Positions 2,241 to 51,688 of a DNA stretch of 64,000 bases are shown in pieces; the first letter of the stretch is position 1, and every line of letters starts with the position of its first letter. The stretch is from assembly GCA_023436245.1 (NCBI GenBank), contig JAEZJZ010000078.1:79758-143757 (forward strand), given 5' to 3'. A program made the position numbers and the translations under genes. The notes under the pieces were generated by a model that searched no databases, was not told where the DNA came from, and worked only from the letters and a program-made list of their open reading frames with translations. Source of the stretch: Bacillota bacterium (lineage in GTDB: Bacteria > Bacillota > UBA994 > UBA5500).

Positions 2241-3710
2241 TCACTCGATGCCAAGGATGTCGCCGGCGATGCGAACATCAACGACCTGTCGGTCACGGAT
2301 TACCACCGAGTCAATCAAGCCCCTAATAGCATTCTGAAGAACCGGCAGCTCGCCGTGCTCCCACAGCCAGAGTGCTTGCTTCGCTTCCTTCTGGATGGCG
2401 GCCGATATCTTTTCTACCTGTGGCGCCTGAGCGCGTGCTTTCTCCTCCGCGAGAAGCTGGCGCTCTTTTTCTATGCGCTCCCGGGCCAGGCGCAGGTCGT
2501 TATCCCCGATCAGGCCGTTCTCATAGGCGGCAATCTGCCTCTGGAAGCGCTGGTCTATGGCGGACTCGCGGCGTACGTACTCTGCTTCCTTGCTGGTCAT
2601 CGCCTGGCTCAGATCCTGGTCACTGACTGTTAGAGAGCCGTCGGCCAGTCGTTCCAGCGTCTGATAGACCGCAACCTCAGCGTCCTCATTCTGCACGTAG
2701 TTGAACCAGCAGCCTCCATTGTGGGCGTAGTTCCGGCAGACGAAGATGTCGCGCTGACTGACCTCAGTCTTCTTGTTTCCGTACTTGCGGGCGTTCATGC
2801 CACTTCCGCAATGTCCGCACACCAGCAGTCCACTGACCCTCATCTTCTTGGCCCGGTCCTTTCCTGTAGGCTTCGGCCTCTGCAGCTTCTTCTCGATAGC
2901 CGCCCATTGCTCCTCGGTGTAGATGGCAGGGTGAGCATCGTCACGGACAATCCATTCAGACTCGTCTCGCCACTGCATCTTGCCTTCCTTGTCGTAGTAT
3001 CTCCGGTTGTACACGAGCTGGCCGGCATAGATCTCATTGCAGATCAGACGGCGCACTGATGTATTGTGCCAGATGCCACCGGAGCGTGGCTTGCTTCCGG
3101 ACTCGTTCAGGGTTTTGGTGATTGCCCGGTACCCGTGGCCAGCGATGTACATATCGGCGATCTTTCGGACGAGTTCCGCTTCCTCAGGAACGATGACCAG
3201 TTGCTTGCTATCATCCAGCCGATAGCCAAAGGGTGCAAAGGACTGATATCGTTTCTTCTTGCTGGCCACCTCAAGCATGGTCGAGCGTACCCGCGTGGCA
3301 ATCATGGCGCGTTCAAACTCAGCGAACGCGGCCAAGATCTGCAGGACCATGCGGCCGATCGGCGTGCTTGTATCGAAGTTGAGGGCAGCACAAACGTAGG
3401 CCGTTTTATGCCTTTCGCACAGGTCAATGAACTGCAGCATGTCTAGCAGGTTGCGGGAGAGGCGGTCGACCGCAACGGTGGCCACGACAGCGACCTGACC
3501 TTGCTTGATCAGGCGCATCAGCTTCTGCATCTGAGGCCGATTCATGTCCTTAGCACTTTCACCTTCGTCGGCAAAGACCTGAACGTTCGCCCAACCCTGG
3601 AACTTGGCGTAGGCGCTGAGCTTGTCTATCTGGGCCTCAATCGAATAGCCTTCCCGGGCTTGATCATCAGTGGAGACGCGAACGTATATGGCGCTAACCC
3701 TATTCACCAT
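2241..3710 (-). CDS. int: large serine recombinase (prophage integrase)
   Basis: MVNRVSAIYVRVSTDDQAREGYSIEAQ is a resolvase-type catalytic N-terminus. Recombinase and zinc-ribbon regions follow (CGHCGSGM...CRNYAHNGGC), then a coiled coil. Start refined to ATG at 3710, with GGAGGTG SD 5 nt upstream. Confidence 0.85.
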   Translation of the reverse strand: MVNRVSAIYVRVSTDDQAREGYSIEAQIDKLSAYAKFQGWANVQVFADEGESAKDMNRPQMQKLMRLIKQGQVAVVATVAVDRLSRNLLDMLQFIDLCERHKTAYVCAALNFDTSTPIGRMVLQILAAFAEFERAMIATRVRSTMLEVASKKKRYQSFAPFGYRLDDSKQLVIVPEEAELVRKIADMYIAGHGYRAITKTLNESGSKPRSGGIWHNTSVRRLICNEIYAGQLVYNRRYYDKEGKMQWRDESEWIVRDDAHPAIYTEEQWAAIEKKLQRPKPTGKDRAKKMRVSGLLVCGHCGSGMNARKYGNKKTEVSQRDIFVCRNYAHNGGCWFNYVQNEDAEVAVYQTLERLADGSLTVSDQDLSQAMTSKEAEYVRRESAIDQRFQRQIAAYENGLIGDNDLRLARERIEKERQLLAEEKARAQAPQVEKISAAIQKEAKQALWLWEHGELPVLQNAIRGLIDSVVIRDRQVVDVRIAGDILGIE

Positions 3711-3940
3711 GAGAGCACCTCCGTGGCGAGTCCAATATCGGTTGGGGATGTGGTTGGTTACCGCGGGTACACATGCCAGCAAGAGAGCTCAAGTGGGGCG
3801 GGAGACCTAGGACTCTCTTCTTCTCTTAGCCTCCCTAACATCCTTATGATAAACCCACTCTGAAGGGGCCATGGGCATTTGAAATCAGCGTTTTGCCAAT
3901 AAATGGCCAGCCAATGATCGGCTGGCCATTTCGGATTATC

Positions 3941-5889: not shown

Positions 5890-6109
5890 TTGACAAACCT
5901 CCAATCATCAGCGCATCATGGTCGGCAGTGTATCGCACAAGGACGAGGGCAGCGGTCCAGGTGCGTGGAGCATGCGCATTGTCACATTTCTTCACGCCTC
6001 GGCAGATTCCTCCAAGAATAGGCAAGAAAATGCCTCGTTTTGGCAGGACTCCAGGGATTCCTGGCAGAACGATAAGACCATATGTCAGGATGGCGGGAGG
6101 TGTCAGATA

Positions 6110-7165
6110 GTGAAGCAGGAGTTCGCTACGGTGCTTGAAGGCTATTTGCAGGCCAAACAGGAGGAGTTCACGTCACACACGATGGCTCACCACCTAAGGA
6201 CGGTCTTGCCCGAAGTGCTAATGAGTGAGCTTGACCTGTCTGTGTACACGAGCGATGGGTCGAGTGGAAATGGTCGATGGGTGAAAGTCCCTTGGGTCAG
6301 TGCGTTCCACAAGAGCGTCACCGTCACGGCGCAGAGGGGCTACTATGTCGTCTATCTGTTCGCCGAGGATATGAGCGGTCTGTACATATCACTTAACCAG
6401 GGCTGGACGGATTTCGAAGACAAGTATGGTCGGAGTGAAGGAAGAAAGCAAATCCGCCGATCGGCATTGGCTTTGAGAGCACTCGTAGGGCCGCATCTCA
6501 GACGGCTTGTGGCTGACGAAATCGACTTGGCACGAAAGGGGAGGCTCGCTCTTGGCTATATGGCCGGCCACGTATGCGGAGCCTATTACCCCGCCTCCTG
6601 CATTCCTTCCGAGGAAGAGCTGCGTGCCGACCTTGTCGAGATTCTTTCCCTGTATAATCGGCTAGTGGCAGTGCTCGGAAAAGATTCATGGGTCGAGAAG
6701 GCAGCTCGGCTTGCAGAATCTCAGACCGCAATCGCTGATGACGAACAGGATGAGGGTGACTTCCAGAAGAGGGTTGGACGGAGCCTTCCTACCCAGTCGA
6801 CGCCTGGGCCCAGACCGCGGCAGGAGCCAAAGCATACGAACCGCGGCCCCGTCTGGCCGCGCGACCCCTCAATCGCGCGGGAGGCTTTGATTAGGGCTGA
6901 GTATCGGTGCGAGGTGGATCCCCAGCACATTACCTTTATCTCGGCGGTGACAGGGCAGAACTATGTGGAAGCTCATCACCTGATCCCGATGAGTAGGCAG
7001 GGAGAGTGTGATAACAGCCTTGATGTAGTGGCAAACATCGTGGCGCTGTGTCCGACCTGTCACCGCAAGATTCACTTTGCCGACAAAGACGTATCCAATG
7101 CAATGACATGCGCCCTTGTCGAAGCCAGGCGGAGTAGGCTGGAGGACTACGGAATCCATTCATAA
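6110..7165 (+). CDS. DUF3578 (McrB N-terminal-like) plus HNH endonuclease; putative modification-dependent (type IV-like) restriction enzyme
   Basis: GRWVKVPWVSAFHKSVTVTAQRGYYVVYLFAEDMSGLYISLNQGW matches the DUF3578 core. C-terminal HHLIPMS...CPTCHRKIH is an HNH motif. GTG at 6110 with GGAGG 13 nt upstream. Confidence 0.6.
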   Translation: MKQEFATVLEGYLQAKQEEFTSHTMAHHLRTVLPEVLMSELDLSVYTSDGSSGNGRWVKVPWVSAFHKSVTVTAQRGYYVVYLFAEDMSGLYISLNQGWTDFEDKYGRSEGRKQIRRSALALRALVGPHLRRLVADEIDLARKGRLALGYMAGHVCGAYYPASCIPSEEELRADLVEILSLYNRLVAVLGKDSWVEKAARLAESQTAIADDEQDEGDFQKRVGRSLPTQSTPGPRPRQEPKHTNRGPVWPRDPSIAREALIRAEYRCEVDPQHITFISAVTGQNYVEAHHLIPMSRQGECDNSLDVVANIVALCPTCHRKIHFADKDVSNAMTCALVEARRSRLEDYGIHS

Positions 7166-22591: not shown

Positions 22592-22924
22592 GTGACCTGT
22601 TTGCTCGGAACTTGCCCTGTGTGCGGCGAGCTGGTTTGGGAAGGCGATTGGATATGGGTGGACAAGCACCTCCACCCTGGGTGCTGGGAAGCGTACCTGT
22701 TGGCTGAGCTCAGTGGGTTGCTGATGGACAAACACCCTGGGAGCGAACGCCTTCGCCCACTTGTGGCAGAGCTAACAAGGAGAACGCGCGATCGGGCAGT
22801 CGAAGACGGGGAAGCGTGGACTGAAGCCGAGCGACTAGTCAGGCGCTCCTTCGATAAAGCTGCATCGCTGGAGGAGTTCATTGAGCGGATAAAGCCAGGG
22901 CTAATAGGGATTCTGAGGCGATAG
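22592..22924 (+). CDS. hypothetical Cys/His-rich protein
   Basis: GTG after GGGAGG. CPVCGE...HPGCW. Confidence 0.4.
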   Translation: MTCLLGTCPVCGELVWEGDWIWVDKHLHPGCWEAYLLAELSGLLMDKHPGSERLRPLVAELTRRTRDRAVEDGEAWTEAERLVRRSFDKAASLEEFIERIKPGLIGILRR

Positions 22925-22940
22925 AAGGGGAGGCGGGGCT

Positions 22941-23393
22941 GTGGCAGTCTTGAACAGTAGAACCTATAAGCAAATAGAGTGGCGCCTGTACCATTACCAC
23001 GAGCTGCGGCGCCAGGTGGAGGACTCGCCGAATCAGAGGCTTGACGTGCTGCATCGGAGTCGGACGCCGGCGACTCCTGGGGGTGGAGGGGTAGCTCACA
23101 GATCGGATCCGACGGCCAGCAAGGTGCTGCAGATAGTGCAAATCGAAGACCAGCAGGCCGAGGCCAAGCGATGGGTGGAAGTCATTGAGCAGGTGATTCG
23201 GCGATATGGCCGAAACCCTCAGGACCGGCTGAAGGGGCAGCTGCTTGAGTTAAGGTACTTCGCGCAGATGGACGAGGGCTACATCAGCCAGAGGCTCTGC
23301 ATTGACCGGTCAACCTTTTACTTCTGGAAGGCTGAGATTGTTACATATGCGGCCCTGATTGCGGCGCAACACGGGTTGCTTAAGGTTAGCTGA
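22941..23393 (+). CDS. ArpU/RinA-family phage late transcriptional activator
   Basis: YKQIEWRLYHYHEL...ELRYF. Size and position just before terminase fit the family. Confidence 0.6.
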   Translation: MAVLNSRTYKQIEWRLYHYHELRRQVEDSPNQRLDVLHRSRTPATPGGGGVAHRSDPTASKVLQIVQIEDQQAEAKRWVEVIEQVIRRYGRNPQDRLKGQLLELRYFAQMDEGYISQRLCIDRSTFYFWKAEIVTYAALIAAQHGLLKVS

Positions 23394-23483
23394 TTTCTGA
23401 CTGCTGGTTATGACTGGGGGTATTGTCACTCTGTTTGCGTGAGGTGTAAACTGGAGAAAAGAGGATCGGAGTGGATAGCCGTC

Positions 23484-23711
23484 ATGACCAGGGTTCGGAT
23501 GATACCTCCCGGCGAAACACCCCAGAGCAACAGAAGGATGTTATTGGCGATGGTAGTTGGGTTCCTGGCTGTACAAGTTGCGAATGTGCTGTTGGTGCGA
23601 AGCGCTGTGCCATTCGCTTTCAGAATGATGATCTGCGCAGCAGTGTTCTGTGTCGTGACCAATGCGATCTTTCCATTCTGGCGAGTCCGATTCACCCGTC
23701 GAGGGATGTGA
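23484..23711 (+). CDS. small two-TM membrane protein; paralog of 63162..63425
   Basis: C-terminus ...NAIFPFWRVRFTRRGM versus ...NLIYPFWRVRFTRRQG at 63.4 kb. Confidence 0.4.
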   Translation: MTRVRMIPPGETPQSNRRMLLAMVVGFLAVQVANVLLVRSAVPFAFRMMICAAVFCVVTNAIFPFWRVRFTRRGM

Positions 23712-23755
23712 CATCACCTCTTGGTGGCCGGCGGTAGACTAAGGAGGTGCGTCTA

Positions 23756-23932
23756 GTGAACTGGACTGGACTCTTCGGCTATGCCCTAGGGGTGACAGTG
23801 TTCCTTTTCCTCTTCCGATTTCCATTGATCTGGTTTCTTGGTATTCGAGGTTTAGAGCAGGAACTGAAAGAGGCAAACGAGAGCTTGCGAGAAATTCGGC
23901 AGGAGCTCGAAGGACTGCGCCCCCGGCAATGA
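23756..23932 (+). CDS. small membrane/coiled-coil protein
   Basis: GTG 6 nt after AAGGAGGTG. One TM helix then a coiled coil. Confidence 0.35.
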   Translation: MNWTGLFGYALGVTVFLFLFRFPLIWFLGIRGLEQELKEANESLREIRQELEGLRPRQ

Positions 23933-24153
23933 TTGGGGTATGAACACCGTGAACAAGTTGACATAAGACAGAAATGTCTAGGACAGACTTACCGTTTTCT
24001 CGTGGTAAGATGATAGGGGGAGCGAGTGGCTACGACCACCGCCTCGATGGGGAATAACCGCCCGAGCAAAGTGCCGGGCGGTTTTGTATCCCCGCGATCC
24101 CCGAAGGTTGACCGCGCAATCAAGGAAGAGTTCCAGGTCAAATGGAATAGGGC

Positions 24154-24843
24154 TTAGCGACGACGGTCCGGTAGGAACCACTTGAGTAGAGAGCTTCCAA
24201 CGCTTTCTTGCAGCATATCATTGACAGAGTTATCTACCCTGAGAACGATATTATTGATGAAGCCGAGATAAGCAATAACGTATGGCTTGGTTATAGTTCC
24301 CTCAGGAATATCAGTTCGATGTGCAATCGCGCAACGGTCGGTCACGTAATCGTCCAGCCTGCTCCTTGCTTTGTCTCGACTCATGTTTTTCCAGTGCCAT
24401 GTACTCGTAATATCGTCAATGGCTAGCAGCTCCCGAAAAAGCGCCTGGACATTATCGGTTCTTGGTGTATTGAAGCCAGAAATCCTCTTCCCGATGACTT
24501 CATGACGGTAATCGCTCAAGACTTGCTTCCACCCGTCGCCGGCTAGTTGCCACAGCCTTCTATGATCTTCATCCTTCTTGAGAACCGCACTGGCAGCAGC
24601 CCTAATCTTCACTGGGATTTGCTTGTGGCTGGTGCTCTTCTTCAGAAGGAACTCATATGCCTCGGTGCAGATGTCCTCAACGTAGGCCTCCCAGCAAGCT
24701 GTAATCAGAACCACAGCACTTCTATTAAGCACACTTAGGTCAAAACGTCGACCTCGCTTCGTTCCGCCTTGTTCTGAATGAATTCGCATCAGGGCGTCAA
24801 TATCGGAGCTATTTGCTTTGAAGCTCTCATAGGCCAATGACAT
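24154..24843 (-). CDS. HEPN-family (RiboL-PSP/MAE_28990-like) protein; putative abortive-infection RNase moron
   Basis: Rx4H motif RCAIAH. N-terminal AVVLITACWEAYVEDI pattern. Own AGAGGAG SD. Opposite strand to the late operon and lower GC. Confidence 0.45.
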   Translation of the reverse strand: MSLAYESFKANSSDIDALMRIHSEQGGTKRGRRFDLSVLNRSAVVLITACWEAYVEDICTEAYEFLLKKSTSHKQIPVKIRAAASAVLKKDEDHRRLWQLAGDGWKQVLSDYRHEVIGKRISGFNTPRTDNVQALFRELLAIDDITSTWHWKNMSRDKARSRLDDYVTDRCAIAHRTDIPEGTITKPYVIAYLGFINNIVLRVDNSVNDMLQESVGSSLLKWFLPDRRR

Positions 24844-25011
24844 ACACAGCGACTCCTCTCGCTCCTAACTTGGCTCAACCGTATTATATTCTCTATCCTA
24901 TCCCTATATTTTAGCAAGCGATATAGTTGGAGATCTCGCAGCAGAGGCAATGCTTGCTGCCACAGCATAGTAGTCTCTTTGCCGCACCATTCGCGTTGGG
25001 GGGTGGCCAGA

Positions 25012-25512
25012 ATGGCCAAACTGACGGCCAGGCAAGAACGCTTCGTGGAGGAATACCTGATAGACCTTAACGCAACTCAAGCCGCAATCAGGGCTGGCTA
25101 CAGCGTGAAGACAGCAAATGAGCAGGGGTCTCGACTGTTGTCAAATGTTAGTGTTCGCGCGCGCATAGACGAGGCCTTGGCCGAGCGCTCCCGGCGTACT
25201 GGCATCAACCAGGACCGGGTATTGCGCGAGCTCGCCCGGCTTGCCTTCGTTAACGCTCCGGACCTGATCAACGTCACCGACGCGACGCTCCTAGAGGATG
25301 CCTCGCCCGACGACACCGCAGCCATCGCCTCGGTCAAGGTCAAACGCCGTGCAACCGATGACGGCGATGAGGTCGAGCGAGAGATCCGCCTAGCTGACAA
25401 ACTCAAGGCCTTGGAGCTCCTCGGCAAGCATCTCGGAATGTTCACCGATCGGCTGGCCGTGGACATCACCGGCGTCAAGATCGTAGATGACATCGGTGGC
25501 GAGAAAGCGTGA
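25012..25512 (+). CDS. terS: terminase small subunit (P27/Terminase_2 family)
   Basis: LTARQERFVEEYLIDLNATQAAIRAGYS. Confidence 0.7.
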   Translation: MAKLTARQERFVEEYLIDLNATQAAIRAGYSVKTANEQGSRLLSNVSVRARIDEALAERSRRTGINQDRVLRELARLAFVNAPDLINVTDATLLEDASPDDTAAIASVKVKRRATDDGDEVEREIRLADKLKALELLGKHLGMFTDRLAVDITGVKIVDDIGGEKA

Positions 25513-26780
25513 AGCAGGTTAGCCTGAGCAACCTCATCGCTCCCAGCTTCCACGACCTACATCAGGACATCAAGCAGGGCCTGCATACCCACCATTGGCT
25601 GAAGGGCGGACGCGGCAGCACCAAGAGTTCATTTGTCAGTCTGGAGATCATCTTGGGTATGATGAAGCACCCCGAGGCTAACGCGGTCGCGCTGCGCAAG
25701 GTCGGCGTCAACCTCAAGGACAGCGTCTATGAGCAGTTGCAGTGGGCGATTCAGGCTCTAGGGGTGGACCAGTACTGGGACTCGAAGTTAAGCCCTCTTG
25801 AACTCATCTACAGGCCGACTGGGCAGCGCATCATCTTTCGCGGCGCCGACCGCCCGAAGAAGATCAAATCGACCAAGTTCCGTAGAGGATATGCCAGATA
25901 CATCTGGTATGAGGAAGTGGACGAGTTCGGCGGACCAGAAGAGATCCGTATGATCAACCAGTCGCTGATGCGCGGTGGTGAGCAGTTCACAGTTTTCTAC
26001 TCGTACAACCCGCCGCAGAGCCAGCGCAACTGGGTGAACACCGAAGTCCTCGATGAGAGGCCGGACCGCGTGGTCCACCATAGCACTTACCTGACTGTTC
26101 CCCGGTATTGGCTGGGCGAACAGTTTTTTGTTGAGGCGGAGCACCTGAAGGCGACCAAGCCCGAGAAGTACGAGCATGAGTACATGGGCAAGGTCACCGG
26201 TACCGGAGGCGAGGTGTTCACCAACCTGACCATCCGCAAGATTACCGATGAGGAGATTGCCGGTTTTGACCGCATTCACCGCGGATTGGACTTCGGCTAC
26301 GCAGAAGACCCACTCCACTACACAGTCAATCACTACGACCGAAAGCGCCGACGGCTCTACATCTTCTTCGAGATCCACGCAACGAGGCTGAAGAACAGCC
26401 TGGCAGTGGCGCAAATCAAGAGGGAGAACGCAGGCAATCGAACAGTGGTAGCAGACAGCGCCGAGCCGCGGACCATCAATGAGTTCCGCGAGCTCGGCCT
26501 TAACATTCTGCCGGCGAAGAAGGGCCCGGACAGCGTGGAGCACGGCATCAAGTTCCTGCAGGACATGGAGGAGATCGTAATCGATCTGGAGCGCTGCCCG
26601 AACACGGCCCGGGAGTTCATCGGTTACGAACTTGAGAAGGACAGAGAGGGCAACTTCCGGTCGGACTATCCGGATAGAGACAACCACAGCATCGACGCGA
26701 CCAGGTACAGCCTGGAGCACGAGATGCGAAATGCCCGGGCGAAGGTCGGTACCAAGAAATCGGCGTTGGGGGTGAGGTAA
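25509..26780 (+). CDS. terL: terminase large subunit (PBSX XtmB-like)
   Basis: Walker A GGRGSTKS. C-terminal nuclease region. Start overlaps terS (GTGA). Confidence 0.85.
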   Translation: MKQVSLSNLIAPSFHDLHQDIKQGLHTHHWLKGGRGSTKSSFVSLEIILGMMKHPEANAVALRKVGVNLKDSVYEQLQWAIQALGVDQYWDSKLSPLELIYRPTGQRIIFRGADRPKKIKSTKFRRGYARYIWYEEVDEFGGPEEIRMINQSLMRGGEQFTVFYSYNPPQSQRNWVNTEVLDERPDRVVHHSTYLTVPRYWLGEQFFVEAEHLKATKPEKYEHEYMGKVTGTGGEVFTNLTIRKITDEEIAGFDRIHRGLDFGYAEDPLHYTVNHYDRKRRRLYIFFEIHATRLKNSLAVAQIKRENAGNRTVVADSAEPRTINEFRELGLNILPAKKGPDSVEHGIKFLQDMEEIVIDLERCPNTAREFIGYELEKDREGNFRSDYPDRDNHSIDATRYSLEHEMRNARAKVGTKKSALGVR

Positions 26781-28165
26781 TGGCCATCATCAGAGACAGA
26801 GAACTCATACCGGATCTCGAGAGTATTCCGGCGCAAATGATCGTGAGCTGCATCAAAGAGCACCAAGTGGGCGTTGCACGGCTGGACAAGCTGGAACAGT
26901 ACTACCTGGGCAATCACCCAATACTGCAGCGAAACCTCGGAGTTACGACAGGGCTGCCCAATAATCGTCTGGTGGCCAACCACGCCAAGTACATCACGGA
27001 TATCGTGGTCGGCTATGTCACCGGCAACCCGGTGCGGTACAACGGCGAGGGGCTGGACGAGCTACTTCGCATCTATGAGCAGGTGGACATCGTCTCCCAT
27101 GATGCCGAGTTGGCCAAAGACTTGTCCATCTTCGGCGTCGGCCGGGAACTCTACTTCATGTCTAGCGACGAAACGCCTATCCCCAAGACCACGGTCATTG
27201 ACCCTCGACAGATCTTCCTGGTGGTGGATGACTCAGTTGAGTACCGGCCATTGTTCGGTGTGCACTACTACCCAAAGCGCGACATCAACAACCAGCTCGC
27301 CGGGTGGAACGTGCTGGTCTACACGGCCGCAGCCGTCACCAGGTACTTCACCAAGGCGCTGGACGCGCCGGACTATCAGCAGATTGACCAGCAGCCGCAT
27401 TACTTCGGCGCCGTGCCTGTCGTTGAGTTCTGGAACAACGAGGAGTGCCAAGGCGACTTCGAGCAGCAGATCAGTCTGATCGATGCATACAACGTCCTGC
27501 AATCCGATCGGGTGAACGACAAGGAGCAGCTGGTGGACGCAATCCTTATGCTGAAGGGCCTGTCGTTGGGCGATGACGAGGAAGAGGCCTCCCGGGCAAT
27601 CACACAGCTCAAGAAGTACAAGGTGCTGGAGATGCCGATGGCCGAGTCTGATGCGGCCTGGCTGACCAAGCAGTTGAACGAGACCGAGGTGGAGGTGCTC
27701 AGGCAATCCATCCGCCAGGACATTCACGAGTTCAGCATGGTCCCGAACCTAACCGATGAGAACTTCGCTTCGAACGCCTCCGGGGTGGCCATGAAGTACA
27801 AGCTGCTCGGTCTAGAGCAGTTGGCCAAGAACAAGGAGCGTTACTTCGTTCAGGGCCTTCGCGAGCGTCTCAAGCTCTTCGCCAACATTCTGCGCGTTAA
27901 GGGCAAAGCCATCGACGTAAGTGGCGTCGAGATAGTGATGAACCGCAACCTGCCGGCCAACGATCTGGAGATTGCTCAGACCATCTCGACTCTGGCCAAC
28001 ATGGTGTCCAACGAGACGCTGATCTCCCAACTGTCCTTCGTGCATGACGCGGCTGAAGAGACCAAGAAGGTTGTTGCCCAGAAGGACGAAGAAGCCAGGC
28101 GACAGCAGGAGATGTTTAGCCAACAGTTCCCGAAGGACGACCAGGTAGACGAGGATGAGGAGTAG
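26780..28165 (+). CDS. portal protein (SPP1 gp6-like)
   Basis: 461 aa. Position after terL. Start overlaps the upstream stop (TAATG). Confidence 0.75.
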   Translation: MAIIRDRELIPDLESIPAQMIVSCIKEHQVGVARLDKLEQYYLGNHPILQRNLGVTTGLPNNRLVANHAKYITDIVVGYVTGNPVRYNGEGLDELLRIYEQVDIVSHDAELAKDLSIFGVGRELYFMSSDETPIPKTTVIDPRQIFLVVDDSVEYRPLFGVHYYPKRDINNQLAGWNVLVYTAAAVTRYFTKALDAPDYQQIDQQPHYFGAVPVVEFWNNEECQGDFEQQISLIDAYNVLQSDRVNDKEQLVDAILMLKGLSLGDDEEEASRAITQLKKYKVLEMPMAESDAAWLTKQLNETEVEVLRQSIRQDIHEFSMVPNLTDENFASNASGVAMKYKLLGLEQLAKNKERYFVQGLRERLKLFANILRVKGKAIDVSGVEIVMNRNLPANDLEIAQTISTLANMVSNETLISQLSFVHDAAEETKKVVAQKDEEARRQQEMFSQQFPKDDQVDEDEE

Positions 28166-30056
28166 TGCCTACTGGGAGCGCCGCGCCAGGCAGAGGATGG
28201 CGCAGTACCACCGGTCCGCCGACAGCACCATCAACACAGTCACCCGGGCATACGACAAGGCCGTCGCGGACCTGACAGTCGAGATCGAGGCCATCTACAA
28301 CACCTTCGGCGAGAACGGCCAACTCACCCCGGCGGAAGCACGGGCAGCATTGAATGAGGTTATCTCTAGGGGAGAATGGCAGGCACTCAAGGGTAGTTTG
28401 AACCAGATCAAGGACAGGGACATCCGCAAGCAGGTACTTGCTAAGCTGAACGCGCCTGCCTACCGGGCGCGCATCACCCGCCTCGAGGCGCTCAGGGCCC
28501 AGGCATATGTCCAGTCCAAGGTCATCGCCGATGTCGAGCTGGCTGCGGGTAAGGCTGGCTACATGGACGTCATCAACGAGGCCTACTACCGGACCATGTT
28601 TGATCTGCAGAAGGGGCTTGGGGTGGGCTTTGAGTTCGCGGCCATACCGAATCGCGTCGTGAAGACAATCCTGAAGCGTCCCTGGAGTGGACGGCACTTT
28701 AGCAGCCGCATCTGGGGCAATACTGATTACCTGGCGGACAAGCTGACGGAGATCATTACGGCTGGTTTCATGTCGGGCGCCGGGGTAGCAAGCATGCGCC
28801 GGCAGCTGCAGGAAATCACAGGGGCTGGCAAATACGCTGCGGCCAGGCTGATCAGGACTGAGACCACTTATATGGCCAACGCTGCCGAGATGGAGAGTTA
28901 CGCTGAGGCAGGCATTGACCAGTACATCTATGTGGCCACGTTGGACAGCAGGACTTCTCCTATCTGCCAGAAGCTTGACCGCAAGGTGTTCCCCATCAAG
29001 GACGCCGTTCCTGGCAAGAACCTGCCGCCGATGCACCCGAACTGCCGGAGCACGACCAGGGCGTATCTGGGGGCAGATACTCTGAAGGGCGTCGAACGCC
29101 GGGCAAGAGACCCCGAGACTGGGGAGACGTACCTAGTGCCAGGGGACATGGACTACGCCGAGTGGCGGAAGCAGTACGTGAGAGACGCTGCCAGCAATGC
29201 AAGCGCGCCCGGGGCCATTGCCAATGTGGGTAATAATGGGTACAATCAGGATGCGGACTATGTCGTCTCTGCCAGGGATATTTACGCAAAGTGGGACAAG
29301 ACCGACAGGAAGGTGTTCGCGGATGAGCTGCTGAAGGCCAACGGGCTGAACCTGCAGGCTCAGATCCACCCTCTTGGGAAGCCATTCGGGCAGTGCGCTC
29401 TCAACCTTGGGGATCCGCAGATGAGGGTACTAAGCTATGAGCTTAACCTAGACGACAAGCGACCACATCGCTATCAGGTCAAGACGGCGTTTCATGAGCT
29501 GTTTCACGCAAAAGCGAATGGTCTGACCCACGATGCACGCATTCTTGGCTTCGGCGACTGGGGATTCTGCGATGATACCTTCGCCGAGGTGAGTGCGCAT
29601 TACTTTGCCAGAGAGATTGGTATCTCAGAGAACATCACCCCAAGCTACGCGAACCACCTCGCCCGGGCATTGCCTAGGCTGAAGGTATTGCCCGAGTTCG
29701 CTAACTGCCGTTCCATAGCCGATTTTGGCGCTGTGGCGGCAAAGTTCAGGTTTGGACAGACTCCGACCGCCGTATGGAGTGACCTGCACAGACATATCCA
29801 GACGGACCCGGTCAATCTGCTCAAGTACTCGCGAAACTACGTTGACTATATAGAGCAGAATGTAGAGTTGCTTGTGGATCAGCTCTTGGAGAACGTCCCC
29901 ATGTATCGGTCCCATCGCTCCAGTATGATAGCTGATGCTCACTCTCTGCTAGACGTGATCAAGACCGGGAACGGTCAGCTAACAAGTAACCAAGGCTTCG
30001 TGCTTGATAATGTTCTGATTCTGGCCATGAATCACAAGGGAGTGGTTGTTCCATGA
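28155..30056 (+). CDS. minor head (Mu F/SPP1 gp7-like) morphogenesis protein with about 300 aa C-terminal HExxH domain
   Basis: Phage_Mu_F signature ...PPMHPNCRST. C-terminal region contains FHELFH (29493..29507). Confidence 0.7.
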   Translation: MRSSAYWERRARQRMAQYHRSADSTINTVTRAYDKAVADLTVEIEAIYNTFGENGQLTPAEARAALNEVISRGEWQALKGSLNQIKDRDIRKQVLAKLNAPAYRARITRLEALRAQAYVQSKVIADVELAAGKAGYMDVINEAYYRTMFDLQKGLGVGFEFAAIPNRVVKTILKRPWSGRHFSSRIWGNTDYLADKLTEIITAGFMSGAGVASMRRQLQEITGAGKYAAARLIRTETTYMANAAEMESYAEAGIDQYIYVATLDSRTSPICQKLDRKVFPIKDAVPGKNLPPMHPNCRSTTRAYLGADTLKGVERRARDPETGETYLVPGDMDYAEWRKQYVRDAASNASAPGAIANVGNNGYNQDADYVVSARDIYAKWDKTDRKVFADELLKANGLNLQAQIHPLGKPFGQCALNLGDPQMRVLSYELNLDDKRPHRYQVKTAFHELFHAKANGLTHDARILGFGDWGFCDDTFAEVSAHYFAREIGISENITPSYANHLARALPRLKVLPEFANCRSIADFGAVAAKFRFGQTPTAVWSDLHRHIQTDPVNLLKYSRNYVDYIEQNVELLVDQLLENVPMYRSHRSSMIADAHSLLDVIKTGNGQLTSNQGFVLDNVLILAMNHKGVVVP

Positions 30057-30259
30057 TCTATATTCCGGATGAGTGGATGGTCGATGAACTGAAGAAGGAG
30101 CAGGTCCATGACATACTCGGGCGACATTTCTTTACGGACCTCAAGATTGAGGGAGAACCTGACCACAATGCTCTGGCCATTGCTGAGTTGCTGCAAATTG
30201 GAGAACACATCATCGCAGGCATGTTGGAGCGAAACGAGATACGCTTTGGTCTAGCCTAG
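30053..30259 (+). CDS. hypothetical protein
   Basis: ATGA overlap with the upstream gene. Confidence 0.4.
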   Translation: MIYIPDEWMVDELKKEQVHDILGRHFFTDLKIEGEPDHNALAIAELLQIGEHIIAGMLERNEIRFGLA

Positions 30260-30276
30260 AACCAAATAGTGAACTG

Positions 30277-30306
30277 CCACCTTTCGCGCGGAAGGTGGTT
30301 TTTTCA
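30277..30306 (+). terminator. rho-independent terminator
   Basis: CCACCTT-loop-AAGGTGG followed by TTTTTT. Confidence 0.55.
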
Positions 30307-30376
30307 TGCCCAAGAGTGCTGACGGCATAAAAAGCTGCACGACTAAGCCGACGGGCGTAAAACGGGAGGAATCTCT

Positions 30377-31000
30377 GTGGATAAGGAAGAGCTGTTCTAT
30401 TTCGACCTTCAGTGCTTCGCTGATGACGGGGGAAACGGTGATGGTAGCAAGGGGGACGGTGGTGGCGCCGACGGCGGGAATGGAGCCGATTCAGGTTCCG
30501 ATGACGGCAACTCGGGAGGGGACAACAAGACCTTCTCCCAGGACGACGTGAACCGGATTCTTGGTGAGCGTCTCTCCCAGGCTCAGGCAAAGTGGGAGAA
30601 GGACCTGCAGGCCAAACTGGAGGCCGCCAAGACCGAGGCTGAGAAGCTGGCCAAGATGAACGCCGACCAGAAGGCGGAGTACGAGAAGCAGAAGCGTGAG
30701 GATGCTCTGAAGAAGCGCGAGGAAACGCTGCAGCAGCGCGAACGCGATATCAGCCTGCGCGAACTGCGGGCGACTGCGCTTGGCACACTGGCGGAGAAGG
30801 GCATGCCGGAGCAGTTGGCAGATCTGCTTAACTACACAGACGCCGAAAGCACCAGCAAGAGCATTGAGACGGTCGAGAAGATCTTCCGCACTGCCGTTGA
30901 GGCCGGGGTAAATGAACGGCTGAAGGGCAACACCCCTAAGGGTGGGGGTAAGTCGTACGTCACAGGCGACGAGATATCCAAGATCTTCGCGCAGAGGTAA
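30377..31000 (+). CDS. scaffolding protein
   Basis: GTG after GGGAGGA. Gly/Asp-rich N-terminus then charged coiled coil. Precedes the capsid gene. Confidence 0.6.
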   Translation: MDKEELFYFDLQCFADDGGNGDGSKGDGGGADGGNGADSGSDDGNSGGDNKTFSQDDVNRILGERLSQAQAKWEKDLQAKLEAAKTEAEKLAKMNADQKAEYEKQKREDALKKREETLQQRERDISLRELRATALGTLAEKGMPEQLADLLNYTDAESTSKSIETVEKIFRTAVEAGVNERLKGNTPKGGGKSYVTGDEISKIFAQR

Positions 31001-41274: not shown

Positions 41275-41717
41275 TGGGATATGACAAGATGACCTGGCAG
41301 GACCGTGTGGTTGAGAAGGCCAGGACGTTCACTATGACCAATAACCCGGACGGAACCATTAGTCTCACACCGTCGCCAGGTGTGGTGGTGCAGGAAGGTA
41401 CACCGGTCAATGCCGGCAACATGAACCATTTGGAGCAGGGCATCTGGGACGCCTACTGGCAGAGCGGAGCTGCGCCCTTGGAGGACGGCCTAGACACGGT
41501 GCTTGTCCGCGAGAGCGGTCTGCTGGTGCGTGTGGATGAGAGTGCCTCTGGTGTGCTGCGCCGACGAACGGAGTTTGCATGGGTGGGCGGCGCGCTGGCC
41601 AGCGTGACCACCACGATCCATGCTGCCGACGGCGTGACCGTGGCGCGGCAATGGACTGACACGCTGATCAGGGTGGACGGCGTGGTGGATCATATCGAGA
41701 AGGAGGTGATAGCATGA
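41274..41717 (+). CDS. hypothetical tail-associated protein
   Basis: TAATG overlap with the upstream gene. Confidence 0.4.
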   Translation: MGYDKMTWQDRVVEKARTFTMTNNPDGTISLTPSPGVVVQEGTPVNAGNMNHLEQGIWDAYWQSGAAPLEDGLDTVLVRESGLLVRVDESASGVLRRRTEFAWVGGALASVTTTIHAADGVTVARQWTDTLIRVDGVVDHIEKEVIA

Positions 41718-42694
41718 GCATTTGGCCAATTCTTGACGGTGTTGAGCAGTTGAAGCGAGGCGCTGGAGCAATCCTGGGCATAGATGGACATAAGTATGCC
41801 GCATTACTACAACAAGAACTGGAGATTCTCAGTTCTCCTACTTATAGTTACGGTTCGACAATTCGGTCAATGGCGGTAGATGATAATTTCATCTACGTGG
41901 GCGGCGGTTCAGGCACCTTCAACTCAGTGCACAAGATAGACAGAGCAACCGGTGCTTCGGTAGGCTCTTCCTCGCCGTGGGAGGGATTTGTCTATGCTCT
42001 AAAAGTGGATAGTGACTTCGTATACGCCGGGATCGGGGCAAACGTATGCAAGATCAGAAAGAATGACATGGGTACGATTGCCAGTGTTCCAGGTGGTGAT
42101 TCACAATTTGCGTTCACCATAGATGACCAGTATCTGTATACAACAGGTGTTAACACCATAATCAAGCGTCGACTGAGCGATCTTGTTTCAGTTGGGCAAA
42201 GTCCTTCCGTAGGTGGCTCCATCATGAGTATGGCTGTCGATGACACCTATGTGTATATAGGCAGTAATTCCTTTAGCACAGTCAAGCGATACCTCAAATC
42301 CAATTTGTCTGATGCTGGGGATTGTCAAACGAATGTCCCCACATATGCACTTCTGATTGACGGCGACTATGTATATGGCTGTGGGGCAGGCTCCAAGATT
42401 TTCAAACTTGACCGGGTAACGTTTACCTTGGTAAGAAATCAGACGCACCCGAGTGTTACCCTTCGTTGCATGGATATCGAAGACGACATTATGTATCTCG
42501 CTGGCGATGGGGATGTTATATATGCAGTGAACAAGCACACACTCCACGTCGAGCGTACGTCGCCAACATATGGCGGAGACATTCTGGCATTGTGTGTTGC
42601 TTATCCGTATGTTTTGGCTGGTGGGGTGAGCGCAGCATCTGTGAAGTGGTATCTTGATGGGCACAAAATACGTGGGTATAGGAGGATTGATTAA
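41714..42694 (+). CDS. beta-propeller-like repeat protein (low GC), candidate receptor-binding/host-range module
   Basis: Repeated motifs FIYVGG, FVYAG, YLYTTG, YVYIGS, YVYGCG, IMYLAG. Noticeably AT-richer. Confidence 0.4.
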   Translation: MSIWPILDGVEQLKRGAGAILGIDGHKYAALLQQELEILSSPTYSYGSTIRSMAVDDNFIYVGGGSGTFNSVHKIDRATGASVGSSSPWEGFVYALKVDSDFVYAGIGANVCKIRKNDMGTIASVPGGDSQFAFTIDDQYLYTTGVNTIIKRRLSDLVSVGQSPSVGGSIMSMAVDDTYVYIGSNSFSTVKRYLKSNLSDAGDCQTNVPTYALLIDGDYVYGCGAGSKIFKLDRVTFTLVRNQTHPSVTLRCMDIEDDIMYLAGDGDVIYAVNKHTLHVERTSPTYGGDILALCVAYPYVLAGGVSAASVKWYLDGHKIRGYRRID

Positions 42695-42696
42695 CC

Positions 42697-42975
42697 ATGT
42701 CCATCTATCTCTTCGAGAACCCAGAAAATGCTGCCAGTATTGTCTATGATGAGAGCACATTGACTGCCGCGGAGATGGCAAGGGGCGTGGCTGTTGAGTC
42801 ATTGCCTGCCCCAAACACGCCTGCTGGTAAAGTGGCTGTGTTGAAGGTCCGAAAGGCAACCGGCGAGGTCTGGTATGACTACGTGGACAAGCCGGAGTTT
42901 GAGCTGGAGCAGCGGGTCGTCGCAACCGAACAGGCATTGCTGGAGCTGCTGCTATCAGGGGGAGGGATGGCCTAG
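42697..42975 (+). CDS. XkdW-like hypothetical protein
   Basis: Position immediately before the XkdX-like gene. Confidence 0.3.
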   Translation: MSIYLFENPENAASIVYDESTLTAAEMARGVAVESLPAPNTPAGKVAVLKVRKATGEVWYDYVDKPEFELEQRVVATEQALLELLLSGGGMA

Positions 42976-43169: not shown

Positions 43170-43487
43170 ATGGGGATGGAGTGGGACACAGTTCTGCCCG
43201 CACTGATTGCTGCGGCCGCGGCTGTCAGTGGCATGGTGCTCGGCTGGACAGCCAGGGCAAGGGACACACGACATGAGATCCGTGCAGACGCCGGGTCAAG
43301 CGCAGCCCTGCGCTCTGATGTTGAGTACATCAAGCGTGGAGTGGATGACCTTCGCCTAGACATTAAGGACCAGGGAAGGCGCTTCGATGAACTGGCTGAG
43401 CGCGTGACGCGGGTGGAGGAGTCGAGCAAGCAGGCGCACAAGCGAATTGACCGATTGGATGGTGTTGACCGTGGCGCTGACGACTAG
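43170..43487 (+). CDS. putative holin (single TM plus coiled coil)
   Basis: N-terminal TM VLPALIAAAAAVSGMVLGW. Immediately upstream of the endolysin. Confidence 0.4.
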   Translation: MGMEWDTVLPALIAAAAAVSGMVLGWTARARDTRHEIRADAGSSAALRSDVEYIKRGVDDLRLDIKDQGRRFDELAERVTRVEESSKQAHKRIDRLDGVDRGADD

Positions 43488-44718
43488 GCAACAGTTCATT
43501 ACCAGCAGAAACCGACCAGGCACCAGAATCACGCCGACGAGCGTCACTGTTCACAACACCGCCACGCCAAACGCCACAGCACAGAACGAACGAGACTTTC
43601 TGCAGACCCACCCGGATGCGAAGGTCTCGTTCCATTTTGCCGTGGATGATGCTGAGGCCGTGCAATGTCTGCCACTGGATGAGATGTCCTGGCACGCCGG
43701 CAGCCGGGCTAACCGACAGAGTATGAGCATCGAAGTCTGCGAGTTCGACGACCGGGAGCGCCAGACGATGGCCAACCGCAATGCGGCTGAGCTGGTCTCC
43801 CAATTGCTCGCTCAGTTTGGATGGGGGCTGGAGCAGGTCAAGACACACAAGGACTGGACCGGCAAGGAGTGTCCGCGGAAGCTACTACCGATGTGGGATG
43901 AGTTCCTGTTGATGATTGCGAGAGGGGGAGAAGAGATGAGATTCAAGGATGTTCCTGCTACCCACTGGGCGGCGGGAGCGATTGAGCAGGCGGTGAGCCA
44001 GGGCTGGGTGGGTGGCTTCACGGATGGCACGTTCCGGCCGGAGGAACCGGTTACCCGGGCGCAGGCGGTATCCATGGTCGGCCGGGCGACAGTCTACATG
44101 GCCAATCGGCTGCAGGCCCTGATCGCCAAGTGCAAGCCGGCGGTAGTCAAAGTGACCAGCCGATCCGCCGCAGGCACCGTCCTTGGTGCCGGCAGCATCA
44201 TCACGACTGATGGCTACATCCTCACCAACGAGCATGTGGTTAAGGACCGGCAGGCTGGGCAGTTCTACCCTGACCTACAGGTGCACATCGTGACTGACCC
44301 AGAGCTCTACGAGGTAACCAAGGCATACCCGGCCACGGTCGTCGCCACGAGTAACTGGGATGACCTGGCGCTCCTCAAGGTGGACCTGAAGGGGCTGCCC
44401 ATCCTGCCGTTGGCCAGCAAGACGCCGCCAGAGGGTACAGCAGTGGTAGCAGTGGGGCATCCGTCCGGAATGCAGTATACCAGCAGCGCCGGCGTTGTGA
44501 CTCAAGACATGGCTGTAATCGGCGGGATGATCACGGTGATGCAAACTGATGCAGCCATCAACCCTGGTAACAGTGGTGGCCCGATCGTGGATCTTGGCGG
44601 TCGCATGGTGGCCGTGGCCGTGTCTAAGCTGCAGGACTTGGACAATGTTGCGTTTGGTGTGCGCATCGAAGACGTGCGTAACTTCGTGGCCAAGCATCTG
44701 CCTAACCTAGTTAAGTAA
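43447..44718 (+). CDS. endolysin: N-acetylmuramoyl-L-alanine amidase plus SLH domain plus trypsin-like (S1) peptidase domain
   Basis: Amidase_2 N-terminus (ITPTSVTVHNTA...SFHFAVDD). SLH (FKDVPATHWAAGAIEQAVSQGWVGGFTDGTFRPEEPVTRAQ). Serine protease GNSGGP plus His/Asp. Confidence 0.75.
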   Translation: MTDWMVLTVALTTRQQFITSRNRPGTRITPTSVTVHNTATPNATAQNERDFLQTHPDAKVSFHFAVDDAEAVQCLPLDEMSWHAGSRANRQSMSIEVCEFDDRERQTMANRNAAELVSQLLAQFGWGLEQVKTHKDWTGKECPRKLLPMWDEFLLMIARGGEEMRFKDVPATHWAAGAIEQAVSQGWVGGFTDGTFRPEEPVTRAQAVSMVGRATVYMANRLQALIAKCKPAVVKVTSRSAAGTVLGAGSIITTDGYILTNEHVVKDRQAGQFYPDLQVHIVTDPELYEVTKAYPATVVATSNWDDLALLKVDLKGLPILPLASKTPPEGTAVVAVGHPSGMQYTSSAGVVTQDMAVIGGMITVMQTDAAINPGNSGGPIVDLGGRMVAVAVSKLQDLDNVAFGVRIEDVRNFVAKHLPNLVK

Positions 44719-49643: not shown

Positions 49644-49903
49644 CACTGCCAGAACCATTTAGCCGAAACCACCTACTCGGAGACAGGCCTCTGAGCAGCA
49701 TAAGAGGATCTCCAAGCAGAGTCGCAAATGAGATAGAATAGACAACAACTAGATACACTTGTCGCCGCCTTACGGTGCGCAAGGGGTAGTCGGTTGGGAA
49801 GGTGGCATTATTCCAGAGGGCCCGCATCCACCGGCACCTTCACTCTTGGAATGCGCAAGCTCGGCGGAACAAGTAATGGCTGATGCCAGAAAAGAGGAGA
49901 AGC

Positions 49904-51688
49904 ATGGAGCTCAAGGAAGGTTATCTTTACGATTTCATCAGCGGAACCCCTGTTCGCGCCACCCCGGAAGAGATAGACGCGGTTCAGGTTTTCTCCCAAA
50001 TGTTAGTTAACGACTATGGCTATCCCAAGAAGCTCATTCAAACTCGTCCGCAATGGCGAGTGAAGGCCAGGCCGTCAGACACGAAGAAGGAGTATCCAAT
50101 AGACATAGCCGTTTTTTCTGATGAGCGCCACACAGAGGACAGCATCCAGATTATCGTCGAATGCAAGAAGAAGACCAGGAAAGACGGCAAGACACAGCTC
50201 GCTGACTATCTGAGATTTTCCAGAGCTCGAGTCGGTGTTTGGTTCAATGGTAAGGAACGCCTATTCCTTCATAAGCATGAGCAGGATGGGCGAGTTGAGT
50301 TCTCTGAGTTGCCCAATATTCCCCGGTTCGGCGAGAGAGTTGAAGACATTGGCCGATTCCGTCGACGGGACCTTAGGCCTGCAACCAACCTAAAGTCCGT
50401 TTTTCGGGCAATCCGAAACTATCTAGCAGCGAATGCCGTGGGCATCACCCGTGACGAAGTGTTCGCGCAGCAGCTCATAAACCTGATCTTCTGTAAGATC
50501 TACGATGAAAGGTTCACAAAGAAGAATGATATTGTGACCTTTCGTGCCGGTACCAACGAGCCTGATGCTGACGTTAGGGCCAGGATACTTGGGCTATTTG
50601 AGAAGGTCAAGTCTCAGTATGATGATGTAATTGATGTTGGCGACTCGATAGTCCTTGATGACCGCTCACTCGTCTACGTAGTAGGTGAGCTGCAGCTCTA
50701 CTCGCTGCAGGATAGCACAAGGGATGCTGTTGGAGATGCATTTGAGGTGTTCATCGGTCCGTCTCTGAAGGGTGGGCAGGGTCAGTTCTTCACCCCAAGA
50801 AACGTCGTGAAGATGATCATCGATATGGTTGATCCCACGCCAGAGCAAAAAGTCATCGATCCTGCGTGCGGCAGCGGCGGATTCCTTGTGGAGGCACTTC
50901 GCCACGTATGGGGGAAGGTGCAGGAGAAAGGCGAAAGCCTGGGATGGCCGGAACACGAGATTGAGGCCGAGAAGCAAAAGGTTGCAATCAGGAACTTCCG
51001 TGGCATAGACAAGGACTCTTTCTTGAGCAAAGTAGCCAAGGCGTATATGGCAATACTCGGCGATGGAAGGGGCGGTGTGTTCTGCGAGAATAGCCTTGAG
51101 TCTCCGGCCAACTGGCATAGCTACACAAGGAATCAGGTTCAGCTTAACGAGTTTGACGTAGTCATTACCAATCCACCTTTTGGCAAGAAGCTATCCATCG
51201 ATTCGGAAGACATTCTTAGGCATTACGACTTGGGTCACAAATGGGACTACGACAGCAGCACTGATACATTTCAGAAAGGCTCGCTCCAGGACAAGCAGCC
51301 TCCCCAAATACTGTTCATTGAGAGGTGCCTGGATCTTCTCAAGGACGGGGGGAAACTGGGCATTGTGCTGCTAGAGAGCATCTTTGGGATGCCCAAGTAT
51401 CGCTACGTTGTGGATTACCTCGAAAAGAGAACCAAGATTCTTGCACTGGTAACCATGCCTGAAGATCTATTCCAGCCTCACACACACGCCAAGTGCTGTG
51501 TCCTAATCTGCGAGAAGACCTCCGATCAGCAGGAAGACCACGAGATCTTCATGGCCGATGTGAAGTGGTGCGGCCACGATAGCCGTGGCAATCCCACTGT
51601 CCGGGTGGACTCGAGCGGCGCGGAGGTTCTCCTCGATGACATCCCTCGCGTTGCTCCTTTATACCACGAAGGGGCAAAACAGAGATGA
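49904..51688 (+). CDS. restriction-modification subunit: N-terminal HSDR_N-like PD-(D/E)xK nuclease fused to gamma-class N6-adenine methyltransferase (BcgI A-like/type IIB-IIG)
   Basis: N-terminus YPIDIAVF...IVECKKK (D/E-x-K). Methyltransferase motifs IDPACGSGGFL and NPPFG. Start could be ATG 49904 or 49883. Confidence 0.6.
   Translation: MELKEGYLYDFISGTPVRATPEEIDAVQVFSQMLVNDYGYPKKLIQTRPQWRVKARPSDTKKEYPIDIAVFSDERHTEDSIQIIVECKKKTRKDGKTQLADYLRFSRARVGVWFNGKERLFLHKHEQDGRVEFSELPNIPRFGERVEDIGRFRRRDLRPATNLKSVFRAIRNYLAANAVGITRDEVFAQQLINLIFCKIYDERFTKKNDIVTFRAGTNEPDADVRARILGLFEKVKSQYDDVIDVGDSIVLDDRSLVYVVGELQLYSLQDSTRDAVGDAFEVFIGPSLKGGQGQFFTPRNVVKMIIDMVDPTPEQKVIDPACGSGGFLVEALRHVWGKVQEKGESLGWPEHEIEAEKQKVAIRNFRGIDKDSFLSKVAKAYMAILGDGRGGVFCENSLESPANWHSYTRNQVQLNEFDVVITNPPFGKKLSIDSEDILRHYDLGHKWDYDSSTDTFQKGSLQDKQPPQILFIERCLDLLKDGGKLGIVLLESIFGMPKYRYVVDYLEKRTKILALVTMPEDLFQPHTHAKCCVLICEKTSDQQEDHEIFMADVKWCGHDSRGNPTVRVDSSGAEVLLDDIPRVAPLYHEGAKQR

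Follow-up and report, generated by a model that had tools for sequence, protein, structure and literature searches.

Which function does a gene of foreign composition serve when it is read against all of its neighbors in a prophage? We address this question for a contig of a Bacillota bacterium (GenBank assembly: GCA_023436245.1; contig JAEZJZ010000078.1), of which a stretch of 64,000 nucleotides was analyzed; this whole stretch is called the window, and all coordinates refer to it. The gene at positions 24154-24843 encodes a protein of 229 amino acids with a HEPN domain of the RiboL-PSP type (Pfam: PF18735) and occupies a slot between a late-activator gene and the terminase gene terS. What emerges is a prophage-borne member of a known, experimentally untouched HEPN clade, and not a new kind of system. 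The explanation that we favor, with about an even chance of being right, is that of a stand-alone RiboL-PSP HEPN protein, horizontally acquired as phage cargo, which acts as a latent, phage-triggered ribonuclease (RNase) and aborts the infection.

Identification of the HEPN protein

The locus is a real gene. A preliminary description of the DNA had reported a minus-strand open reading frame (ORF) of 229 amino acids with the motif RCAIAH and its own Shine-Dalgarno sequence, and all of this holds: the frame starts with ATG, the motif spans residues 170-175, and GAGGAG lies 9 nt before the start codon. The protein had also been likened to HEPN domains of the RiboL-PSP/MAE_28990 type. The first half of this assignment is firm, with a match to PF18735 at E=2.5e-15 and 57.3 bits (curated gathering cut-off: 28.4 bits) that covers profile positions 22-190 of 191, whereas HEPN_MAE_28990 appears merely as a weak secondary Pfam match (E=0.017). 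The features of the gene and its product are the following:

24154..24843, minus strand: solo HEPN_RiboL-PSP gene; coding sequence including the stop codon, 229 amino acids, ATG start
24853..24858, minus strand: Shine-Dalgarno sequence GAGGAG, 9 nt 5' of the HEPN ATG, as read from the sequence
24883..24888, minus strand: perfect TATAAT hexamer, a possible -10 element, 40 nt 5' of the HEPN ATG, as read from the sequence
24319..24336, minus strand: predicted catalytic Rx4H motif R170-C-A-I-A-H175; R170 and H175 invariant in 70/70 relatives, R176 adjoining
24673..24693, minus strand: acidic patch W51-E-A-Y-V-E-D57 in core helix 2; W51, E52, E56 and D57 invariant in 70/70 relatives
24379..24636, minus strand: family-specific helical insert, approximately residues 70-155, between core helices 2 and 3; W98, G104, W105, P127 and W149 invariant

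RCAIAH is the sole Rx4-6H of the protein. Because about 0.54 Rx4H motifs are expected by chance from the amino acid composition, the motif alone is no evidence. In the alignment with 70 relatives, R170, H175 and R176 are invariant throughout (70/70); in total, 13 residues are invariant (W51, E52, E56, D57, W98, G104, W105, P127, W149, L163, R170, H175, R176), and the window protein keeps all of them in an intact, full-length frame.

The structure of the protein is predicted with high confidence. It is all-alpha, its core is a four-helix up-down bundle, and the top matches of a fold search with the model are HEPN toxins; sequence searches of the PDB, with the single protein as well as with a profile of the 70 sequences, found no related solved structure. 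According to the model, the motif R170-x4-H175 ends a helix of residues 156-174, followed by a loop (175-185) and the last helix (186-215). HEPN domains are defined by an Rx4-6H at the end of helix 3 that runs into the loop to helix 4 (PMC3710099), so that the helix-end position of R170 and H175 is the one expected for a HEPN motif. HEPN domains have also been described as conserving an acidic residue in helix 2 (PMC3710099), to which E52, E56 and D57 within the helix of residues 37-69 correspond. The polar residue (N, D or H) right after the conserved arginine, which is called 'typical' and not obligatory for HEPN (PMC3710099), is missing here: position 171 is a glycine in 68/70 relatives and a cysteine in the window protein. 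We regard the protein as a genuine member of PF18735; by homology, R170 and H175 most likely serve it in cutting RNA as a metal-independent endoribonuclease.

A swappable slot in the prophage

An independent gene call yielded the exact protein on a metagenome scaffold of 281 kb (ENA: ERZ28596075; LEMO22-1_SAMN17062689 scaffold_20), where it lies in a prophage of the siphovirus type; a scaffold of this size shows that the prophage has a bacterial genome around it, into which it is integrated. The three contigs on which the exact protein is found, and no others, represent a single genomic place. The prophage comprises a cI-like repressor with a Peptidase_S24 domain, the recombination genes YqaJ and RecT, and RusA; it further encodes TerS and TerL, a portal of the SPP1 type, a protein like Mu F, and the head-tail functions. 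The slot and its surroundings contain:

22941..23393, plus strand: RinA/ArpU-class late transcriptional activator, 150 amino acids (TIGR01636 phage_rinA, phrog_36, phrog_248)
24001..24089, plus strand: conserved non-coding element with an intrinsic terminator at the left slot border; stem 24058-24064 / 24075-24081, then TTTTGT
24086..25031, no strand assigned: variable cargo cassette; HEPN gene, divergent intergenic region and a few codons at the start of terS (blastn breakpoints 24085 and 25032)
25012..25512, plus strand: TerS, first gene of the packaging/late module, 166 amino acids (Pfam Terminase_2, E=1.5e-43), divergent from the HEPN gene
25509..26780, plus strand: TerL, phage gene

The evidence that the gene is cargo comes foremost from the IMG/VR contig L014, whose TerL and TerS are 98% and 93% identical to those of the window, and which lacks the HEPN gene. 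According to blastn, the two phages are 90% identical in their DNA from position 25032, which is a few codons inside terS, and across the head genes that follow. Between the borders, the window has 946 bp with the HEPN gene on the minus strand, and L014 has 1,454 bp with two plus-strand ORFs, one of 180 amino acids (phrog_36795, function not known) and one of 92 amino acids without a family match. Since the gene is absent from L014 and other genes take its place in the same slot, it is swappable cargo.

The base composition points in the same direction. The gene has a GC content of 0.486, and 0.522 at third codon positions (GC3), compared with 0.57-0.61 and 0.70-0.83 for the phage genes; it ranks 13th lowest among 616 segments of 690 bp in the prophage, i.e. 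within the lowest ~2%. The whole cassette has a GC content of 0.494, the prophage a mean of 0.577. Furthermore, we count for the cargo status that even the closest homolog shares only 48% identity with the window protein, and that the relatives are scattered over many phyla. The same holds for 39 more distant TerL relatives (62-71% identity), in which no real-looking family of minus-strand ORFs was found upstream of terS, the ORFs there looking like spurious antisense frames. The gene is accordingly an acquired cassette and no part of the phage backbone. A blastn search with positions 22900-26800 against 50,697 GenBank phage records returned terminase segments only.

Most of what the preliminary description had claimed about this context stands. 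All neighboring phage genes are on the plus strand, opposite to the HEPN gene, and the lower GC content is evident from the values above. The term moron is supported by orientation and composition, and most directly by the absence from the near-identical L014. The gene resembles other prophage morons in that it sits between conserved modules against the flow of transcription, is of foreign composition, is bounded by a predicted terminator and is missing from a close relative; it differs in that its own promoter is only putative (a lone TATAAT, with a negative promoter scan). Two claims need to be narrowed. The gene had been placed antisense within the late region; it is antisense, but it lies at the junction of late activator and terS and not inside the late operon. 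The ArpU neighbor does exist as a regulator of the RinA/ArpU class, but its model matches are weak: TIGR01636 with E=4e-6 and 27 bits (cut-off 31.9), and phrog_36 and phrog_248, annotated as transcriptional regulator/activator, with E~1e-7.

Distribution of the family

An exhaustive profile search of 1.84 billion representatives yielded 1,735 clusters at E<=1e-3, of which 402 reach E<=1e-30, with clusters counted at 50% identity. PF18735 is the precomputed domain of every relative that the searches returned, and nearly all clusters consist of single-domain proteins of 220-240 amino acids. In a scan with a single pattern of data that hold one genome per species, 131 genomes possess a family member (31-44% identity); their phyla include Planctomycetota, Acidobacteriota, Verrucomicrobiota, Actinomycetota, Pseudomonadota, Cyanobacteria and Chloroflexota. 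A member is also present on seven plasmids, where its annotation reads just 'HEPN domain-containing protein'; the two of these contexts that were inspected show a monocistronic gene. When longer members were checked for fusions, two of them (P0166 and P0169) revealed a C-terminal Sigma70_r4 helix-turn-helix domain, which hints that some members may bind DNA or regulate themselves; the N-terminal extensions of longer members have no Pfam match.

In phages the family is rare. A tblastn search against the 50,697 GenBank phage records found no family match, and a pattern scan of the 2.9 million contigs of IMG/VR found only four family loci. To call the gene a 'typical' prophage-borne candidate, as the preliminary description did, was therefore an overstatement. 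The closest relatives (P0002, P0006, P0007) are on short contigs, on which phage carriage is not visible.

Two of the four IMG/VR loci are L012 and L011. The viral contig L012 contains a 53%-identical partial homolog that is divergent from tail genes. In L011 (2980-6684), a family member of 28% identity is part of an inovirus-like element and directly follows genes of a Zot-like ATPase and a secretin.

Search for a partner gene

Among ORFs of at least 70 amino acids within 3 kb, no conserved partner was found at 80 loci, where the commonest neighbor family, a C5 methyltransferase, occurs at 4/80. Among ORFs of 25-110 amino acids within 600 bp, none was found at 89 loci beyond pairs of closely related genomes. 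In the window we saw no adjacent gene on the same strand, and an MNT antitoxin is neither present there nor conserved beside the relatives. At the level of BLAST, a conserved partner protein is absent.

These results bear on the proposal that the gene encodes the toxin of an addiction or toxin-antitoxin (TA) module that stabilizes the prophage, and whose antitoxin goes unseen, be it a small RNA, a host factor, or a protein that is tiny or evolves fast. Toxins of TA modules are a classical role of HEPN proteins, and among solved structures the nearest in fold are the HEPN toxins from HEPN-MNT pairs. Moreover, several relatives have a tightly linked gene of about 190-220 amino acids downstream on the same strand, without a Pfam match, that resembles a variable partner or immunity gene, for example L177 (3273-3938, gap of 93 bp), L180 (902-1471, 56 bp) and L009 (1008-1637, 39 bp). 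Yet these three genes are mutually unrelated and have no counterpart in the window, where the flanks offer neither an MNT gene nor another candidate: on one side lies a terminator with convergent small ORFs, on the other terS. A HEPN-MNT pair is rejected for want of an adjacent MNT gene and of any neighbor, large or small, conserved over the 80-89 loci. With respect to an RNA antitoxin or a riboswitch-like element, TRF (positions 23300-25200, score of at least 30) returned 0 rows, meaningful direct repeats are also missing, and Rfam at E<=1, which covers the abiF motif, has no match in the slot flanks; on these grounds a type III module is unlikely. Overall, we consider a TA toxin improbable.

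A Pfam census of 135 flanking ORFs of the relatives counts as recurrent families integrase (4), N6_Mtase (3), Eco57I (3), IS66 (2), IS110 (2), HerA (2), Abi_C (2) and PIN_3 (2), and RE_HindVP, HEPN_Toprim_N and AbiJ_NTD3 once each. Single look-ups revealed tyrosine integrases with a CHAT protease, Imm50 with a transposase, and DUF5343 with HEPN_Swt1. The lean towards mobile elements and conflict systems is suggestive, in a census that was made without a background and so does not amount to statistical enrichment.

Comparison with known systems

The clade behind PF18735 was described by Anantharaman et al. 2013 as 'Ribo L-PSP-HEPN', by computation only (PMC3710099). The window protein agrees with it across almost the whole profile, with the Rx4H kept, but has no fusion to L-PSP and no operon with ParB, the traits from which the clade derives its name: neither L-PSP nor ParB is found among the window neighbors or in the 25 commonest families of the 135 flanking ORFs. 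It is a solo single-domain protein like most of the ~1,700 clusters; its carriage by a prophage is rare for the family.

Defence systems that consist of one HEPN gene are known. The RiboL-PSP clade has been described as a distant relative of AbiF/AbiD (PMC3710099), and PD-T4-5 is a plasmid-borne distant AbiF/D relative from E. coli that confers abortive-infection defence. With the lactococcal AbiD, AbiD1 and AbiF (Abi_2) and with PD-T4-5, the window protein shares the stand-alone HEPN organization, the Rx4-6H, the carriage by mobile elements and the absence of a dedicated antitoxin. It differs in that it has no Abi_2 match in Pfam at E<=1 and no PADLOC match to the models of AbiD, AbiF and PD-T4-5, and in that the solo family possesses its own insert of ~85 residues and its own invariant residues. 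Given a solo unit in a prophage and the company of mobile and restriction genes among its relatives, single-gene HEPN abortive-infection proteins, i.e. AbiD/AbiF and PD-T4-5, are the best functional analogy.

The likeness to the toxins of type II/VII HEPN-MNT pairs (SO_3166, PDB: 5yep; 7ae2; 8xdj) is confined to the fold. Identity is just 7-10%, and those toxins have ~130-140 amino acids, compared with 229, a large insert and no adjacent MNT gene here. None of the HEPN defence profiles listed in PADLOC (PD-T4-5, PD-T7-3, PD-T4-2, ApeA, RloC, PrrC and others) is matched significantly, and scans with NCBIfam and PHROGs gave no usable match. As judged from these profile searches, the protein lies outside Abi_2, the HEPN-MNT pairs and every PADLOC-listed system.

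Proposed function

By analogy, the abortive-infection or toxin role suggested in the preliminary description is reasonable. The model that we favor runs as follows. A temperate phage would have acquired the gene horizontally as a moron, in the slot between the late-activator gene and terS. HEPN enzymes generally build their active site across a dimer. The RNase site of the window protein would consist of R170 and H175 together with R176 and the patch of E52, E56 and D57, probably across a homodimer. The gene would be transcribed alone and against the phage genes, so that the protein is possibly made in the lysogen. Because an antitoxin or partner is absent, the enzyme is presumed to be inactive until a superinfecting phage triggers it. 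The trigger may act through the family-specific helical insert of ~85 residues, which is a candidate for sensing or for the choice of substrate. Once triggered, the enzyme would cut host or phage RNA and the infection would be aborted, which is also the presumed mode of AbiD/AbiF and PD-T4-5.

A bolder version extends this model to the family. The solo PF18735 proteins, with ~1,700 clusters in many phyla, could form an unrecognized partner-less single-gene abortive-infection family, in which the insert serves as an infection sensor that gates the HEPN RNase; the prophage copy would then be used against competing phages. The invariants named for a sensor are W98, G104-W105, N125-T126-P127 and W149, and the family matches no PADLOC v2 model. 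We regard this extension as tentative and, at present, doubtful.

Several observations weigh against an abortive-infection RNase. The first is the rarity of the family in phages, by which a prophage defence gene cannot be argued from frequency. PADLOC, even at E<=10, assigns the window protein to 0 families, and for the 70 relatives it gives marginal matches only, two at E ~1e-3 to PD-T4-2_B and two at 2.7e-3 to RTasHEPN. The literature searched on PF18735 consists of the 2013 computational description and a review table, and no experimental paper was found in it. The census of neighbors has the limit given above, and many neighbors of the relatives are housekeeping genes. Expression in the lysogen is only presumed, as the promoter scan of the upstream region detected no sigma-70-like site: a -35 element at canonical spacing to the TATAAT is absent, and a TTGCTA lies 23 nt off. 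The cysteine at position 171, next to the catalytic arginine, may affect activity. Finally, the model offers no explanation for the harmlessness of a partner-less RNase before infection.

An RNase could also serve the lytic program of the phage as an accessory gene, by degrading or processing host or phage transcripts or by countering an RNA-based defence of the host. Phages that encode their own RNases are known. The gene adjoins the late promoter region and the late-activator gene, and the partial homolog of L012 is found beside tail genes. It is, however, oriented opposite to every lytic gene and of foreign composition, the 98%-TerL relative L014 does without it, and most family members reside in bacterial chromosomes or plasmids without a phage context; we give a lytic role only a slim chance. 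It is very unlikely that the gene is a mere passenger, devoid of function or in decay, or that it encodes a non-catalytic, binding-only HEPN protein, in either case without a selectable phenotype for phage or host: Cys171, the undetected promoter and the occurrence at one genomic place would fit, but the frame is intact and full-length with all 13 invariants, the structure is predicted with high confidence, the Shine-Dalgarno sequence is good, and the Rx4-6H, which HEPN families that have lost catalysis usually drop (PMC3710099), is kept.

We thus return to the abortive-infection RNase as the preferred explanation. Should the protein indeed exclude phages as an active and self-contained HEPN RNase, the catalog of single-gene defence families would grow by one, and the widespread PF18735 would gain an experimental handle. 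To a specialist, a HEPN cargo gene in a prophage is no surprise, and the locus is otherwise an ordinary, correctly recognized domain match. The absence of the family from the defence catalogs, together with the clean slot, makes it a fair candidate for a defence screen. The pair of window phage and L014 defines a cleanly bounded slot from late activator to terS, which can be mined for further accessory genes.

Flanks of the slot and further observations on the prophage

Just past the HEPN stop codon, positions 24001-24085 of the window are 82% identical to positions 83-170 of L014 (a stretch of 88 bp), and the adjacent genes of this element differ between the two phages. Its sequence reads GATGATAGGGGG ... 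CTCGATGGGGAAT, after which come the GC-rich hairpin of the terminator and TTTTGT. The two copies differ by indels of 1 and 2 nt, which argue against a coding function. The predicted fold has -53.4 kcal/mol (z = -3.6 compared with shuffled controls). Rfam has no match to the element, and a search in the window and all fetched loci found it only in L014. The strong hairpin lies 70-100 nt beyond the HEPN stop; the T-tract favors the plus strand, and that of the minus strand is weak (TTATT). The element probably ends the transcript from the RinA side, and it may also stop the convergent HEPN transcript. Its role could be confined to terminating the transcript on the regulator side, or it could regulate late transcription.

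Two small plus-strand ORFs, 23439-23711 (90 amino acids, missed by the gene caller) and 23756-23932 (58-61 amino acids), precede the terminator on the side of the RinA-like gene and converge with the HEPN gene. Both have predicted hydrophobic segments and a GC3 of 0.56-0.60, which is below the phage level; no homologs occur in the fetched loci, and they are maybe further cargo. The whole low-GC region is bracketed by a perfect 14-nt inverted repeat, GCCCTGATTGCGGC / GCCGCAATCAGGGC, at 23352-23365 and 25081-25094, with both arms in coding sequence (one in the RinA-like gene at its 3' end, the other in terS towards the 5' end). By a rough estimate, ~0.01 such pairs are expected by chance in 1.8 kb; the repeat may be a coincidence or the trace of a recombination.

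A second divergence between window and L014 is found at the end of the Mu-F-like gene, where 276 bp (29770-30046) face 562 bp in L014 (6363-6925). It coincides with a dip in GC content to ~0.485 at 29800-30400 and is maybe another variable spot. The stretch of lowest GC content in the prophage (0.46-0.47 at 41700-42800) contains an ORF of 326 amino acids (41714-42694, plus strand) with no Pfam match and a weak one to phrog_4184; it is perhaps a module for receptor binding or the tail fibre, or else cargo acquired separately.

A large serine recombinase is encoded at 2241-3782 (minus strand). Genes of a defence type surround the prophage: an MrcB_N and HNH protein (5918-7165), a DEAD/ResIII helicase (47034-49643), an HSDR_N and N6_Mtase fusion of type IIG/I-like appearance (49883-51688) and a specificity subunit (51685-53160), all on the plus strand. 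The prophage may sit in a defence island or carry one itself. The putative endolysin at 43447-44718 (plus strand) has an unusual combination of Amidase_2, SLH and Trypsin_2 domains.

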